A stretch of DNA of 60,761 nucleotides, counting the filler, from Squatina squatina (taxonomy: Eukaryota), in NCBI GenBank assembly GCA_031763465.1. It is 4 parts of 4 records of this genome, joined end to end, with 100 filler letters (N's around TTAATTAATTAA, not from the genome) between each part and the next. Parts side by side here need not be neighbours in the genome. Positions count along the whole stretch, not along the records: positions 1 to 16,460 come from JARFOE010000080.1; 3 more parts are not named here. The stretch is one strand, 5' to 3'. Every line of letters starts with the position of its first letter. Position 1 is the first letter of the stretch. This document shows, one piece after another, positions 788 through 60,761 of this stretch. The translations under genes and the position numbers were made by a program. Under the pieces are notes generated by a model that was not told the DNA's origin, searched no databases, and saw only the letters and a program-made list of their open reading frames with translations.

Positions 788-1780
788 AGAAAAATTTTAT
801 GAGAAACTGCTAAAAGAGATGGTCCGGCAATTTTATGAGAAGAATTATGGGGACGAAAGTTGGGGAGATTTATATAAACTGGTAAATAACAGTCATACGG
901 GCTTGAGGAGACAAAAAAGGGGGTTATTCAATGACGCGGCCACGGTATTTAATACAGGGACGTCCCAATCAATAGTATGGATAACACTCAGTTGCAAATA
1001 CAAGTAAATACCTTAAAGGACCAGCTAAAGAAAATACTGGGGGAGGGTAATAATATTGGGGGGACAAGTATTGCAGGAAGACCAAGTGATGACAATTCAC
1101 CTGAAGGAAATAATAGCTGAGTTGGAGACTCGCACCCAGACCATAAACAAACTAATAAAGGAAGTACGAAATGCTTCGGACCGGGCCGCCCAAAATGACG
1201 CATGTGTCATGTACGGTGCCTGGTTGTTAAACGAAGGGTGTAGTAATTTAGAGGATTTGAAACAAGGCCACATATCGTCATGGATTGGCAACTGGCACCT
1301 AAAGGCTATAAGGGCACATAACGAGCTTATGAATCCGTGTCAGCTGCGGTCGACCTCCGATCAACTGTGGTCAAAATAAACAAACTATAGGGGAGGTACA
1401 CATGTGGTATTGTGCCCATACCACCTGAATCTTTTCGATCGGCCAGTATGTGAGTTTGATTTTGGAAGCGGACAGCCTATCAACTGTATCATGAGGGTGA
1501 TGGCTCAGAGCCATGTCTCACTCCAAGTCGCATATAAGGGTGATGGAACCTACTGTATTACCACTAATGAGAGCCGGTATAGGGTACACAATGATACCTG
1601 GTGTCCAGTTCAAGACACTACCTCTTGCTTCAGACCCCAGATAGAGGTCCAGGTAGCACAGGAATCACATCCCAATCAATATCACGGTTAACGGTACTTT
1701 GCCAAACCTCCAGGAATACATATCTCGTTTTGGATATGATATGCCGCCAATACCCGACCACTTGAATAAACTAGTAAAGG
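788..1780 (+). mobile_element. env: Endogenous viral env pseudogene fragment (class I fusion protein, lokiretrovirus/foamy-like)
   Basis: Furin site RRQKR|GLF at 906-920, then a fusion-peptide-like GLFNDAATVFNTGTS. Heptad helices INSMDNTQLQIQVNTLKDQLKKIL and LKEIIAELETRTQTINKLIKEV follow, then a Cys-rich region (LCPYH, PVCEF, INCIM, GTYCITTN, WCPV, TTSCF) and N-glycosylation sequons (NNS, NAS, NES, NDT, NIT, NGT). Disrupted by frameshifts near 967, 1057 and 1665 and a stop at 1377. Confidence 0.8.
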
Positions 1781-3226
1781 NNNNNNNNNNNNNNNNNNNN
1801 NNNNNNNNNNNNNNNNNNNNNNNNNNNNNNNNNNNNNNNNNNNNNNNNNNNNNNNNNNNNNNNNNNNNNNNNNNNNNNNNTTTAATTGATATCATCTTTC
1901 ATGGTTGAGTAGTGCTTAATGTGCTGACAAGCACCCTTTGCAGAGCATTTTTAAGGACAATGTGCAGCTCAGTGGTATTTAGAGTTTTCTTTTAATTAGG
2001 AACCCATTCTGCACTTCTTCCGTAAACTCGGTAGGTATGATTCCCCGCCGCGGAGCTGTCTGACAGATTATGTTTGTCTTAATTTAATATAACTGAGGGC
2101 AAGCTCATTTAATCAGTTATACTTGCATATAGACTGAAAATTCAAATCACATGACTTCGGAAGACACAACAGTCAACACTTCCTTCTGTCAGTCTTATGA
2201 TTCATTGAAGCTCTGTTGAGATAACAGGTGGCTCATTTGTTTGTATAATTAAAATACACCGATAGGTGTTTTTGTATAAATGCAGCCTTGTATTACTGTT
2301 TCTCAGCAATTGTGAAACAACCGCCATCAGTGCGATATGTACTTTTCTATTACCCTTTGCCTTATTTTGCGTTGTGTTTTAAAGCCCACGTACTCGACCA
2401 ATTCTAATTCAGTTCGAAATCAGGTTACAGTTATGTAGCAGCTATATTTTGTTTTTTGTTTTTTAAATTGTCACAAATATTGTTCTCATGAAAGTCAAAT
2501 GTGTCAGAGCTGAAAATTATTGTCATACGCTTGTCACCTAGGGACCAAAATTGGCTGTCGTCACGTTTCAAACGCTGCAACTCTTTTTAGCGCCAAAACA
2601 GCACCCGGCGTTGATAGTGNNNNNNNNNNNNNNNNNNNNNNNNNNNNNNNNNNNNNNNNNNNNNNNNNNNNNNNNNNNNNNNNNNNNNNNNNNNNNNNNN
2701 NNNNNNNNNNNNNNNNNNNGGACAATATAATTTATTAATGTGCCCGGGACGAAAATTCTATATGCGATTAGATCAACAATTATATCGTGTGAAGAAGTCG
2801 TTTTCACTGCTATATACAAATGAACAGCAATATTCAGTTAAGGTCAGTAACCAGTGGAATACAGACTATGCCGGTATCACAAAACACAGTCAACAGGTGG
2901 CTTCGAACAGTTGGAAAAGTTTCTTACTTTTAAAAATAAATGTAAGCCCAATTGTGCAATCAAACTATTTTGACTGCATTTAAAAAGTGAAAAGTATGCA
3001 ATAATGTTCTTAGTTTCTGACCTGAGCCATTCTAAACTTTCGGTGAATTCTGTCTCAATGGTTTGCCAACAGAGACCTCCACGAAAGTTAATCGCTTTTT
3101 CGAGCGCTTTTGGATTTGACTCATTTAAAAACATATAAGATAACATCGGCCAATTAAAGAATTTACCGACAGATTTTCAGACTGAAAGATCTGAAAACGG
3201 TGTATTAATCAAACTGTGCGGCTTAC

Positions 3227-4097
3227 CTTGTCAAACCACTGTAGTGAGAGTAACCTTGCGAATAATTGTCCGCCATTGCTTTAGTTCCACCTTGATAGCC
3301 CAGGTATGTAATGGGTTGGTACCAGGTCACAGGGGCTGAAGAAGTAGACGGCATGGTATCATCTTGAACCAAGAAGCTGCAATTAAGTCCTGATTCATGG
3401 TGGGACAGACCATATGAATCTATAGGTTCAGTCTTAAACATTACAGCATCTTCCAGTGGCTCGCCTCTCATGCTGGGTCTTTGCTGTTGAGGGGAAACGG
3501 TATAGTCAGTATATGGGGAATAGCCAGTGGGCATATAACCGAAGGTGTTGCTGGGTTCCTGGCTCATGTTCATTGCCGGGTGCACTTCGGGTTGGAAATT
3601 CCTCTCGCCTTTCGAATTGGGGGAGCCGCCAGTCTCGGCAAAACCGTACGAGCTGGAGATGTCCGGGATGTAAGGTGCGTGGTCGCAATCGTCCGTGGTG
3701 AGAAGTTGGTGAGTACGTGCGGCCAGGTAGATCGGATTGAGCGGCAGGAAAGGAAAACGGAAAATGTTCAGAGGTGACAACTGGCCCCGGGGGTTTGGGT
3801 GACAGCCATCGTCTGTGTCTTGGCAGATTTCGGATTTCATGGAATGCAGAGTGGCGGCCGCTCCGCCGTGCTCCACTGAACCTAGACTGTGTCCAGCGCA
3901 CACTTTGCGCAATTTGGGCTCTGTGGGAATATTCCTATCTGTGCTGATCAGCGACCAGGAAGTCCCAGGGTCAGTGGGGATGGACTGCTTGCCCGGCCCC
4001 AGCCCCTCGGAACTGCTTTCACTTAAACTTAAATCGCAATTTGTCCACGTAGTGGGCTCCGCCGCCTCACTCAGACTGGACACTAAGGATATGCCCA
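3227..4097 (-). CDS. PGR: Progesterone receptor, exon 1 (3' part of N-terminal A/B domain; 5' part lost in gap)
   Basis: Open frame of about 290 codons up to the gap. FPFLPLNPIYLAARTHQLL matches the PR motif (human VPILPLNHALLAARTRQLL). The end LGYQ...YSGLTR aligns with human LGYQ...YLNYLR and stops at a phase-2 AG|GTAAGC donor (GT at 3226-3225). TRPC6 lies nearby on the same strand, as in other vertebrates. Confidence 0.88.
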
Positions 4098-6155: not shown

Positions 6156-8824
6156 AAATGATGCAATGTTGCTTTGAATTGGTCAACACAGATAGACTTA
6201 ATCTTCTGAGTGTCAGCTTTCAAAATTCTAGTCACATATTCTGTTGTGATTTCAGCAAAAAATACATTCTCTAAATTCCCCATAAATAAACCCATTGACT
6301 GCCACTGGCGAGAAATATTCATCTCAGTTTGCTGAAGAAATCACATATTGTAACACAAATTCTAATACAGCATTTATTTTACCTAATTAATGTGTTCAAA
6401 ACTGTTGTAAACACCAAATGTAATTTGCAACAAATATACAGATATGATAAAAACAACTTTAACAAATGACATCAAGCCAAAATAAATCTCCAACAGATTC
6501 AAGACAANNNNNNNNNNNNNNNNNNNNNNNNNNNNNNNNNNNNNNNNNNNNNNNNNNNNNNNNNNNNNNNNNNNNNNNNNNNNNNNNNNNNNNNNNNNNN
6601 NNNNNNNTAGTAACGAATTCTGATGATGAATCTCCTGCCATCTTGCTTTGTTTAGTATTCCCTTTTATTTTGTCTAATCTTTTGTTTTTTTGTTTTTTTA
6701 CACAACAGGAAACAAGCATTTTAAACTTAGTTGCAAAAATGACTACAGCAAAAAATAAATGTGATTGAATGCTTCTTCTGCTAAATTATGATGTAAATAA
6801 AATAGTAAATGAATCTTTTGCCCTCCCCTTGCTGAAGAGGTTGCACCCAAGGGGCACTTAATTTGCTGCCTCCTATTCTAACATAGAGCCTGCTCAATTG
6901 AACACAATAGCCTCATTAAAGCGATGTTCTGAGGAATATTTTTAATGGTTTACTTGGATTCTACTTAAAGTTGCACCTCAAATACATTCATCACTGCTGA
7001 AAGCTCAATCAGAATTTGATTGCTTTCCATCATCCACATAGAATTGCTTCTAAAGCTGTCTAGAGCTGAGGGGAGTAGTGGAATTAGGTTGTGTGTTTTT
7101 TTTGTTCTACCCATTATCTGCATACAATGAAATACTTACTCAGGAATATATTAATATTAAATTATCTGTGATTTGCCACCAAAGAGTTTACCAAAATCAT
7201 AGGTCCCAATAAAGTCTTCAGCAGTGTGGACTGTTGATTCAAAAGTGTTGGTGCTGAAAGTACTTAAGGGATTTCTTGAAAATTGCAATACAGTGTGGTT
7301 TTTGCNNNNNNNNNNNNNNNNNNNNNNNNNNNNNNNNNNNNNNNNNNNNNNNNNNNNNNNNNNNNNNNNNNNNNNNNNNNNNNNNNNNNNNNNNNNNNNN
7401 NNNNNTATTAAGTGGAAAATATTTAAGGACTAACATTTTTGGAAGAACATTAAAATTTCACCTGTACCTTTATTCTATTCAATTGCTAAATCAATATCAC
7501 GGCAATATTTTCGAGACTAAATCATCAATATAGCATCAGAAGGAAAGATGAAGGATGATGTAAACTTTCAGTAAATAGCTAAAAGTCTGTCCATTAACAC
7601 TTCTTTAAAAGATGTGCAGGAAGGATGATAAGAGCTTGAATGATATCTGAAATAGCATTGTTAAGATCTACAAAATGGAAAATAAATGAATAGTTCTTTT
7701 CACACATCTTTAGCTCAGTCTCACCTCATTATGGAAGATGTTCATATGATCTTAAAAAGAGGCAGATCAGAGATGATCACATTATAGAAGTGCGAATGAA
7801 TAGTTTTAGCTATTCTTACAACCAGTGGAACCTACTGAACTTCAAATCTGATAAAATCAAAGCTAATTAAAAATTAATCTTTTATATCCCAAACCATTTT
7901 TATTCAGGGTAATGGAAAATATTGTAGTTAAGNNNNNNNNNNTACCAGATTGGAATTTTTAGTGAATGCTCCGCATCCTCCCAAAGCACAATAACTAAAT
8001 CAAAAACTGCACAGATTAATCAAATCACTCTGTGAATTGGGTTGTACAGCTTCTGCCACATATCAAGGCTTCAACACTTCTAATTATTCAACATTAATGT
8101 GAAAATAACATTATCAACATGCTCTGATACACAGATGAAAAATTAACAAATTAACAAGTACAATGGTGAGAATGGGAGCTNNNNNNNNNNNNNNNNNNNN
8201 NNNNNNNNNNNNNNNNNNNNNNNNNNNNNNNNNNNNNNNNNNNNNNNNNNNNNNNNNNNNNNNNNNNNNNNNNNNNNNNNATGTTTTCAGTACACGTCCT
8301 ATTGATTGTAACAAACTTGTGCTCTTAATTAGCGTCATATCTCATTACCTCTGACTTCAAGCCTTCTGGGTCACACTGACCATATGACAAATCGTCACCA
8401 AGGGAGATTTAATTTTCTCAGTCATGTGAAATAGCCAAATCATTATATATATTCCATTTATCTGTTGAAATATAACGAGTGCAATCTTTCTCTTACTGAG
8501 CAACTGAGAAAGTATCAATTGTTAAGTGACAACCAGAGCCTTTAAAAAAAACAAGACTGTCTTCTTTTTATGCAAATTACTTGCTTGAAGCTTGAAGCTG
8601 TCAGTTGGTAAACAAGGTAGCAAAACCAACATTATATTTTGTGATGACTTAAAATGCACACATAAAGGAACCTTAAATAACAACTACGAAGACTAGATTT
8701 TCACCTGTCTCTGTGACTGTTGAGTACAAATGGTGAAATATGCTCCCGTACAGAATTTTTCACCTGGAATGACACTGTATTTAAATAATCAAATGGTTGC
8801 AAAGTAAACTTTATTTGCTATGGT

Positions 8825-9033
8825 AGCAGTGACTGGTCATTAGTGTTCAGTGACTGGTCATTAGTATTCAGTGACTGGTCAGTAATACTCAGTGGCTGGA
8901 CAGTAGTATTCAGTGGCTGGTCATTAGTATTCAGTGACTGGACAGTAGTATTCAGTGACTGGTCAGTAGTACTCAGTGGCTGGACAGTAGTATTCAGTGA
9001 CTGGTCAGTCGTACTCAGTGGCTGGACAGTAGT
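8825..9033. repeat. 21-bp minisatellite, about 10 copies (tcagtg[a/g]ctgg[t/a]cagtagtat), truncated by gap
   Basis: Direct tandem repetition. Produces the periodic ORFs TTVQPLSTTDQSLN and FSDWSVV. Confidence 0.95.
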
Positions 9034-14033: not shown

Positions 14034-14142
14034 NNNNNNNNNNNNNNNNNNNNNNNNNNNNNNNNNNNNNNNNNNNNNNNNNNNNNNNNNNNNNNNNNNN
14101 NNNNNNNNNNNNNNNNNNNNNNNNNNNNNNNNNAAACATTAC

Positions 14143-14346
14143 CTTTTCCATTTCTGCATTTTCCTGATACTGTCCTTTTCTACACCTTAACAGACTGATT
14201 AGCGATTTTTTAATTCTCAGCAGGAGATAGAAGATGGACTTCGGGCTCGGCACCAAGTTAAATGGCACTGCAAGTGTGCGTCCCTCTTCAAAATAGGAAA
14301 TCCATAGTTTGGCTCTGGAAAACTTCCATTCCACATCAGCATCATT
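14143..14346 (-). CDS. TRPC6: TRPC6 internal exon (TRP helix/TRP box; equivalent of human exon 9)
   Basis: 204-nt exon with ttttgtag acceptor and AAG|gtaatg donor. [47 protein letters not shown]...QENAEMEK closely matches human TRPC6 [43 protein letters not shown]...QEDAEMNK. Confidence 0.93.
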
Positions 14347-14617: not shown

Positions 14618-14880
14618 GGGGTCAAAATTCAGTTTTTTTTTTTTACCCTGTTAACACCTCCAAGGGGCGCTAACAGGGCAAAAAAGTGAAATTCGGTGTG
14701 GCGAGGCGGTGACCTCGCCTGCCGGAAAATTCACCAGGGGGTTCCAGAGGCACAAAGGCCTCTGTTCCCTCTAAGCTGCCTGCAGGCGCACAGCCGTCTT
14801 AAAGATACCGCGCAGCCTACTCACAAGCTCTTAAATAACACGCATGTGAGGCCACTGTGCAAAAATTTACAGGTACTGCA
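14618..14880 (+). mobile_element. Harbinger-like MITE left end
   Basis: Starts ggggtcaaaattc. The same terminal motif recurs at 23643 and 29066 and, reversed, near 12360, 21935, 26810, 30815 and 57355. GC-rich body. Confidence 0.55.
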
Positions 14881-14926
14881 TGAAAGCTCACACTCTAGGC
14901 TCTCTGCAATACTTCTCTCCTTCCAG

Positions 14927-15098
14927 CCGTGCAAATATTACAACAAACGTAAATGCAAGGACAGGAACTGCATGTACCTGCACGTTTGCAAATATTACTT
15001 CAACGGAAACTGCAAATATGGGGAAAATTGTAGATTGAGCCACAGGATGAGTCCCAACACTGAATCCTCCTCGTCATCGGATCAAGACACACCAAGAA
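14927..15098 (+). CDS. Exon (or pseudo-exon) encoding two tandem CCCH zinc fingers, PARP12/ZC3HAV1-like, antisense within a TRPC6 intron
   Basis: Strong acceptor ttctctccttccag followed by PCKYYNKRKCKDRNCMYLH-VCKYYFNGNCKYGENCRLSH (C-x7-C-x4-C-x3-H and C-x7-C-x5-C-x3-H) and a Ser-rich linker. Possible donor A|gtgagg at 15099, otherwise TAG at 15125. Confidence 0.72.
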
Positions 15099-15164
15099 GT
15101 GAGGTTCTGTTTATTGATGAAGAATAGGATGGTGGCTATCGAAACCATCAGCGGTGACTTTTGT

Positions 15165-16088: not shown

Positions 16089-16358
<270 letters not shown>

Positions 16359-59534: not shown

Positions 59535-60245
59535 CACTGTGTTACACAGCGAGCTGAGTGTGCTGATCATGCGTTACTCACAGAGCTGTGAGTACTAGAC
59601 AGTTTGTTGCACCAGCAGAGCTGTGTGTACAGGACAATGTGTTAGACAGAGAGCTGTGATTACTGCAGAGTGCATTAAATAGGAGGAGCTGTGTGCACTG
59701 AACTGCTAATTACACTGCGAGAGCTGTGTGAACTGAACAGTGTGTTAAGCAGGAAGAGCTGTGCGTACTGAACTGCATGTTACACAGAGAGAGCTGTGTT
59801 TACTGAACTGTGCAGGTCACAGGGAGAGCTGTGTGTACTGAACAGTGATTTACACAGAGAGAGCTGTGTGTACTGAACAGTGTGTTACACAGACAACAGT
59901 GTGTACTGAACAGTCTGTTACACAGAGAGAGCTGTGTGTTCGGAATAGTGTGTTACACAGAGAGAGCTGTGTGTACTTAACAGTGTGTTACACAGAGAAC
60001 AATGTGTATGGAACAGTATCTTACACAGAGAGAGCTGTGTGTAATGAATTGTGTGTTACTGAGACAGCTGTGTGCACTGAACAGTGTGGTACACAGGAGA
60101 GCTGTGTGTACTGGACAGTGTTTTACACAGTGAGAGCTGTATATATTGAACAGTGCTTTACACAGAGACAGCTCTGTGTACTGAACAGTCTGTTACTCAG
60201 TGAGAACCCTGTATGGTAAACACTGCGTTACACAGGGAGAGCTGT
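59535..60245. repeat. ~35-bp minisatellite/satellite, about 20 diverged copies (acacagagagagctgtgtgtactgaacagtgtgtt)
   Basis: Direct tandem repetition. Confidence 0.95.
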
Positions 60246-60246
60246 A

Positions 60247-60761
60247 TTTTAAAAAAGAGGGTAAGGGAAAATGCGGATTATAGACTGGTGAGCCTGACAT
60301 CAGTAGTGGGGAAAATACTGAAGTCCATTATTAAAATGTAATAGCAGAGCATTTGGAAAATAGTGACAGGATCAGTCAACATCGGCATGGATTTACAAAA
60401 GGAAAGTTTTGCTTGAGATATCTACTGGAATGTTTTGAGGGTGTAACTTGTAGAGTGGATAGGGGAGAACTAGTGGACTTTCAAAAGGCTTTCGACAAGG
60501 TGTCCACATAAGGGATTATGTGCAAAATTAAAGCACATGGGATTGGGGGTAAAGTACTGACATGGATAGAGAACTGGTTGGCAGTCAGGAAACAAAGAGT
60601 AAGAATAAACGGGTCATTTTCTGAGTGGCAGGCAGTGACTAGTGGGGCACCACAGGGTTCAGTAGTAGGACCCCAGCCATTCATAATATATATTAATGAT
60701 TTAGATGAGGGAATTAAATGTAATATCTCCAAGTTTGCGGATGACACAAAGCTGGGTGGGA
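60247..60761 (+). mobile_element. CR1 LINE RT fragment
   Basis: YRLVSLTSVVGKILK...DFQKAFDKVS...[13 protein letters not shown]...YINDLD...[10 protein letters not shown]. Confidence 0.92.

Follow-up and report, generated by a model that had tools for sequence, protein, structure and literature searches.

The origin of retroviral envelope (env) genes is an open question, for which four scenarios have been set out (PMC7947760). Envelopes of the F type are already known on retroelements, namely in lokiretroviruses and foamy viruses, and the class I hairpin route of membrane fusion has been described for F proteins and for foamy Env (PMC11468914). In foamy Env, a receptor-binding domain (RBD, residues 217-543) of roughly 330 residues is placed between the HRC helix and the furin site (Fernandez et al. 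2024, PMC11468914; PDB 8rm0, 8rm1). Foamy-like endogenous retroviruses (ERVs) of cartilaginous fish are reported with pol present and env undetected (PMC5512871, PMC10699275, PMC5210030).

Here we describe an env-like locus of Squatina squatina, located in a stretch of 60,761 nt (assembly GCA_031763465.1) that was analysed as a whole and is called the window below. We read the contig at 788-1780 as a broken, internally deleted env-like copy from a repeated shark family, likely the env of an ERV, whose intact product is predicted to be a paramyxovirus-F-type class I fusogen; we put the probability of this reading at about 0.82.

The Broken Env-Like Copy

The env-like sequence forms a single 993-nt contig (788-1780), flanked by a 100-N gap on each side in a fragmentary assembly. 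It comprises 328 codons over four frame pieces (about 789-965, 968-1078, 1083-1670, and 1672-1779), with one stop codon at 1377-1379 and six N-X-S/T sequons; the third frame piece contains nine Cys residues, and CX6CC is found in none of the pieces. The original prediction of an env-like contig of about 330 aa with three frameshifts and one stop was borne out, and the furin site, heptads, Cys-rich block, and six sequons lie where it had placed them. All five stop-free pieces are collinear with natural relatives (E 1e-9 to 1e-41), and their identity to the closest shark relatives is 43-68%.

A cellular coiled-coil gene fragment or a chance reading could be suspected from some Pfam coiled-coil noise matches and from two relatives annotated as cadherin- or Niban-like, but in both cases the gene model runs an env part together with an unrelated host protein. 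The relative P0016 scores 135 bits against the real contig DNA versus at most 22.3 bits against 200 shuffles, and the fold searches reported below return viral fusogens. This reading, refuted by the ordered alignments, the Foldseek fold search, and the shuffles, deserves hardly any weight.

All parts of the env-like copy are on the plus strand. A pre-cleavage amphipathic helix at 789-839, likely the HRC of an F2-like N-terminal subunit, aligns with residues 115-171 of P0015 and 76-134 of P0021, and its equivalent in the P0013 model is helix H231-254; the remainder of that subunit would lie inside or past the gap at 688-787. About 22 codons downstream of the helix, the sequence reads RRQKR (906-920), a polybasic furin-type site, and all 11 relatives covering this position have R-X-K/R-R there. 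The segment at 921-990, with a frame change near 966, is assigned as fusion-peptide-like by its position, and it is weakly hydrophobic, as are its counterparts (mean hydropathy of the first 25 residues past the furin site from -0.06 to 0.88 in relatives). It is followed by a long, HRA-like heptad helix at 968-1246, which has a frame change near 1080, ends in a conserved Cys, and corresponds to helices H267-391 of the P0013 model; the order of furin site, fusion-peptide-like segment, and long HRA helix is thus present. A conserved LEDLKQG..WI motif (the stretch LEDLKQG..WIG is read at 1248-1289) and the next helix, together 1248-1361, are domain III-like, with 59-68% identity to P0016, P0017, and P0021.

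At 1362-1394, which includes the stop at 1377-1379, 11 codons stand against 75-76 residues in P0004, P0016, and P0017, with deletion ends at residues 181 to 258, 145 to 222, and 179 to 255, respectively. These alignments show that the internal deletion anticipated near 1377-1400 is real, with about 65 codons lost. Beyond it, a Cys-rich beta region at 1395-1670 (49-66% identity to P0003, P0016, and P0017; beta strands in the P0013 model) likely represents domains I/II of an F-type fold. A linker and the start of an HRB-like segment come last, at 1672-1779 (38-46% identity to the same three relatives), with a frame change near 1671 and a cut by the gap at 1781.

With three frame changes, a stop, and a deletion, this copy is unable to make a protein; it is a dead fragment that adds a marker and no function. 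A nearly identical short word, from a 39-nt direct repeat family (72% identity), was observed at 960-998 and 1667-1705, the sites of two of the three frame changes; the coincidence may reflect a motif prone to slippage, an effect of the assembly, or chance.

No hydrophobic 19-residue window above 0.75 was found in any env piece of the contig. The original prediction had pointed to the lack of an anchor more than 280 aa past the cleavage site. The long ectodomain stands, since the hydrophobic anchor of the relatives lies about 400 residues past that site, whereas the absence from the contig does not count, because the assembly gap at 1781 precedes the relatives' transmembrane position: the contig ends at the level of residue 356 of P0016, and the transmembrane segment lies at about residue 402. 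A C-terminal hydrophobic segment is present in the relatives that reach that far (P0013, P0014, P0016, P0018, and P0019).

The Host Region

The host region is identified by TRPC6 exons at 14134-14346 and 16089-16358 and by a PGR-like first exon at 3226-4095, all on the minus strand, with TRPC6 upstream of the latter. The PGR-like feature is the 3' part of a long steroid-receptor coding exon, a 290-aa open frame ending in a splice donor (AG/GTAAG), and its Pfam Prog_receptor match (E 0.01) is below the cut-off. Its likely name, PGR, comes from this weak match together with the adjacency of TRPC6 and PGR, which we take to be the normal arrangement; our literature search found no paper on TRPC6-PGR synteny. 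As scaffolded, the env piece is antisense in the intron after the PGR-like exon, and for so small a contig, set between placeholder gaps, this placement is uncertain.

Other features of the window were also recorded. An open frame at 14690-15124 (+), antisense within a TRPC6 intron, encodes CCCH zinc fingers in tandem (Pfam zf-CCCH_4, E 1.5e-7; zf-CCCH_PARP12, E 3e-6) and continues into LINE-like sequence; it may be a PARP12/ZAP-like fragment that was captured or retroposed. LINE-type reverse transcriptase fragments, unrelated to the env piece, occur at 60512-60760 (+) and elsewhere, and minisatellite-like tandem arrays at 8789-9033 and 59842-60219 were seen as repetitive open frames.

A Shark-Wide Envelope Family

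A HMMER search of 1.84 billion representative proteins gave 13 relatives at E<=0.001, and a profile search yielded six further proteins. For eleven of the 13 a species is given, and these are without exception sharks, of six species: Pristiophorus japonicus, Scyliorhinus torazame, Heterodontus francisci, Chiloscyllium punctatum, Mustelus asterias, and Heptranchias perlo; the other two are without a species name. At least six distinct family proteins occur in P. japonicus. None of 17 relatives contains CX6CC. The DTTSCF and LPNLQ words, which had been taken for echoes of foamy virus segments, are not preserved as such in the closest relatives.

A 98-residue piece of the window shares 44-63% identity with a close group and 19-29% with more distant subfamilies. 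In a tree of 14 rows built on this piece, 1 of 11 inner branches was well supported, and the window sequence grouped loosely (89/93) with eight close relatives. One DNA run gave 16 matching contigs, mostly below 95% identity and covering 25 of 30 bins, several of which overlap with different letters; such diverged contigs would be the pattern expected of a multi-copy family, and the bins left uncovered at the deletion are no proof of anything. In the codon-position count, 40 of 46 differences were used, minus five near frame changes; of the 35 scored, 17 fell on third and 5 on second positions (p 0.044), a weak hint that the copies may have diverged while env was under selection. The proposal that the contig is a fossil in cartilaginous fish agrees with what was found, namely a dead copy of a multi-copy shark family.

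Pfam and PDB sequence searches gave no fusogen match for family members or env pieces, the PDB search returning noise only (FGF1, E 0.56), and a word-indexed search of the middle env piece against longer proteins gave 0 of 258 candidates. No description of this family was found in our literature search; work of 2023 on cartilaginous-fish foamy viruses, cited in the accessible part of PMC11468914, lay outside the search and may bear on it. A shark F-type Env family is thus apparently undescribed so far.

Several gene models deserve separate mention. P0013, from C. punctatum, is an uninterrupted 739-residue env-like frame with a head, furin site, and anchor, and may represent either a recent insertion or a gene that has been retained. 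In the P. japonicus models P0008 and P0015, env pieces are joined to cadherin-like and Niban-like host proteins; these fusions are likely annotation artefacts, with exonisation as the alternative.

Predicted Fold

The model of P0013 (739 residues, 17 sequences) reached a mean pLDDT of 48.7. Foldseek nevertheless gave 123 PDB matches at E<=0.001 (best E 7e-8), and 40 of the 41 among those listed are titled as pneumo/paramyxovirus F or foamy Env. The original prediction had proposed a Foldseek comparison of the repaired protein, and on this low-confidence model of a relative the outcome agreed with the expected F and foamy Env matches. With VIA-align, an independent aligner run on 48,161 chains, F or foamy Env made up 10 of the best 11 rows (Z 5.7-7.6). 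Residues 207-450 of the model compare with F at an rmsd of 3.7-7.7 over 110-143 residues and superpose on the domain III region (HRC, HRA-C, and core sheet) at an rmsd of about 4-6 and Z of 6-7.3. TM-scores range from 0.08 to 0.16, and the VIA Z values stay below 8. Beta domains I/II consist of low-confidence strands, spanned by the Foldseek alignments and barely tested by VIA.

P0013 is a distant relative of the window piece (19% identity over 98 residues; tblastn E 6e-6). The closer relative P0016 gave a model with a pLDDT of 40.9 and no structural match at E<=0.001. The F-type fold may therefore be called well supported but predicted, and it would extend to the window through sequence homology. 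As for the class I fusogen label, the non-gamma character and the long Cys-rich ectodomain held up and an F-type protein is supported, whereas the narrowing to foamy virus or lokiretrovirus is unsupported (no RBD in the former case, 0 of 6 genomes in the latter).

Candidate Carrier Lineages

The lineage that carries the envelope is judged on indirect evidence, because no gag, pol, or LTR is linked to it. None of 91 ORF pieces of the window matches an LTR-element domain, a count to be read with the fact that gaps of unknown true length bound the env contig. The env flanks contain no long direct repeat, and the sole reverse transcriptase (RT) in the window is LINE-like and 59 kb from the env piece. 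Among 8000 candidate long gene models searched for an env-pol fusion, the one match was a cadherin fusion, and env loci with flanks were found in neither viral contigs, metagenome contigs, nor phages. Multiple diverged genomic copies, a trait of LTR retroelements, are present, and the antisense intronic position was counted in favor of an ERV env. The accessible portions of PMC12583693 and PMC6001957 hold nothing decisive on the carrier lineage.

A search of BFVD with the P0013 model placed the Env of the walleye epsilonretrovirus WDSV at rank 2 (E 4.3e-8), that of WEHV-1 at rank 13, and feline foamy Env at rank 32. An epsilon-like ERV env, of an F type shared with the walleye viruses, is a serious candidate, at less than even odds. 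The original prediction had set epsilonretroviruses aside on the ground that their TM subunit carries an immunosuppressive domain (ISD) and CX6CC; this exclusion fails because the WDSV and WEHV Envs, the best retroviral structure matches, are without these gamma hallmarks according to PMC9967133. Epsilon-like ERVs are present in a chimaera (PMC4422223). Against this stand an identity of 10-11%, TM-scores of about 0.1, and target lengths of 1159-1317 residues versus 739. Moreover, the top BFVD match is an arthropod RNA-virus glycoprotein, ranks obtained with a poor model are not a phylogeny, and many fish epsilon-like ERVs carry a gamma-type env (PMC9967133). In the same search, the glycoprotein of the Wenling thamnaconus filovirus was observed beside the WDSV and WEHV-1 Envs among the matches to the F-type model (E 4e-8 to 5e-6), which suggests that F-type envelopes may occur in epsilonretroviruses and a fish filovirus.

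A foamy or foamy-like ERV env is suggested by the shared F fold (P0013 model match E 6e-7, Z 7.2), and the env undetected beside foamy-like pol in a chimaera and a catshark (PMC5512871, PMC10699275) could be one that went unrecognised. Several observations speak against it, and we regard it as unlikely. The RBD insert between HRC and furin site is absent: besides the short distance seen in the contig, the last Cys upstream of the furin site lies 36-45 residues away in 6 of 6 relatives examined. The full-length relative P0013 has a single furin-type site; R-X-K/R-R was counted once in P0013 and once in P0010, both with N-termini from predicted gene starts and with minimal RXXR unscored. The structural alignment covers foamy residues 162-853 using only 399 model residues, and the family profile retrieved no foamy Env chain from the PDB at E<=10.

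The RNA-virus glycoproteins among the top BFVD matches draw attention to an errantivirus-like (Ty3/gypsy) F-type env or to a negative-strand virus glycoprotein, endogenised and amplified by a host retroelement. So do language-model features from the Atlas, whose top clusters comprise Baculo_F/Gypsy envs of arthropods and viral F: P0016 scored 0.94 for Baculo_F, 0.93 for Fusion_gly, and 0.91 for Gypsy env, with a low recognition value, and these features also agree with the F-type fold of the main reading. P0013 met a single chordate cluster, without a name, at 0.82, to be taken as no more than a lead. An errantivirus-like carrier is less likely because a broad screen, in the accessible part of PMC13524379, reports no intact homologues of invertebrate errantiviruses among vertebrate elements, and a one-off capture explains many diverged copies in at least six shark species less well than an integrating element does. 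These two origins are improbable when pooled, and each of them, Ty3/gypsy or non-retroviral, is very unlikely when taken singly.

Lokiretroviruses are marked by an RT that is sister to all retroviruses, a tether plus RNase H, and a CGIN1-like integrase. A lokiretrovirus env, with the lineage extended to cartilaginous fish, is suggested by the published Env, which is F-like, has one RXKR site, and carries nothing inserted ahead of it (PMC7947760); compared by eye, the published Envs have their conserved blocks in an order parallel to that of the shark family. However, the RT screen in the accessible text of that paper was negative in 6 of 6 chondrichthyan genomes, including those of S. torazame and C. 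punctatum, which carry the family. In the published Envs, the F core follows directly on the signal peptide, the fusion peptide is strongly hydrophobic, and PF00523 is matched, whereas the shark relatives have a head of 150-190 residues and a weak fusion peptide. PF00523 was detected at E<=1 in 0 of 13 relatives, and in none of the window pieces at E<=10. We consider this carrier very unlikely. A snakehead-like or other class III carrier is quite unlikely. Snakehead-like ERVs are present in a chimaera (PMC4422223); no snakehead retrovirus Env appeared among the named BFVD rows listed, an absence that carries no weight against such a carrier.

Proposed Working of the Intact Protein

The ancestral product would have been a type I membrane glycoprotein in which an F2-like strand and helix were followed by a fusion peptide, the HRA, Cys-rich beta domains, the HRB, and a membrane anchor. 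Its precursor would have measured roughly 700 residues, including an N-terminal head, and furin cleavage at RQKR would have yielded two subunits, one peripheral and one, of about 450 residues, anchored in the membrane. A Cys upstream of the furin site and the one that ends the heptad helix are putative partners in a link between the two subunits, which are Cys-linked in like manner in paramyxovirus F. Once triggered, the heptad helix is predicted to extend so that the fusion peptide is inserted, and then to form a six-helix bundle by folding back with the C-terminal helix; membranes would thus be fused by the class I hairpin route.

Full-length relatives carry 150-190 residues ahead of the F-type core. 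The head of P0013 bears the UniRef name Ig-like and has six weak matches to antibody heavy chains (E 0.054-0.85), and that of P0010 is a different, Cys-rich sequence. Receptor binding may have resided in this head, which is outside the window, rather than in a foamy-type insert; this is a guess.

Meaning and Comparison with Known Systems

We tentatively propose, as a possibility that we hold to be doubtful, that an undescribed family of retroviral envelopes is present in both major branches of sharks and has a third F-type layout, in which a paramyxovirus-like core is joined to a swappable head (Ig-like or Cys-rich by subfamily) that replaces the foamy insert. A shark-wide family together with the structural matches to walleye Envs makes the origin of env testable through the RT upstream of env. 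If the proposal is true and the pol is epsilon-like, F-type envelopes (those of loki, foamy, epsilon, and the shark family) would be found to either side of the root of the retroviruses, which would favor an F-type ancestral retroviral Env, later replaced by gamma and beta types.

Gamma-type Env differs clearly, with its short TM subunit carrying an ISD and CX6CC, whereas the ectodomain of the shark relatives is about 400 residues long and lacks CX6CC. The errantivirus and baculovirus F-type envelopes (PF12259, PF07253; PMC13524379) resemble the family as envelopes of LTR retroelements and are its nearest Atlas clusters, but their hosts are invertebrates, the screen reported there names no vertebrate homologues, and the shark family has no Pfam match. 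The walleye epsilonretrovirus Envs (WDSV A4GTG3, WEHV-1 Q9WHI8) are likewise non-gamma fish retroviral Envs and the best retroviral structural matches; they are much longer (1159-1317 residues in BFVD) and share 10-11% identity.

The F proteins of paramyxo/pneumoviruses (RSV, hMPV, hPIV3, NDV, and henipaviruses) share with the shark family the predicted fold and the order of strand/HRC, furin site, fusion peptide, HRA, Cys-rich beta domains, HRB, and TM. They differ in sequence (7-14% identity); the shark family is multi-copy in host DNA, and its full-length members have an extra head of 150-190 residues and a weakly hydrophobic fusion peptide. The lokiretrovirus Env (Wang and Han 2020, PMC7947760) is also an F-type retroelement envelope with one RXKR, no insert, and a similar post-cleavage length; in contrast to the shark family, it is without an N-terminal head, has a hydrophobic fusion peptide and a detectable PF00523, and is unreported in chondrichthyans (0 of 6) in the accessible text. 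Foamy Env likewise combines F-type domains I-III in a retroviral envelope with a long post-cleavage ectodomain, and it is set apart by an RBD insert, which the shark family lacks, and by two furin-type sites, where P0013 and P0010 show one R-X-K/R-R each. The shark family thus does not conform to the layout of either foamy or loki Env.
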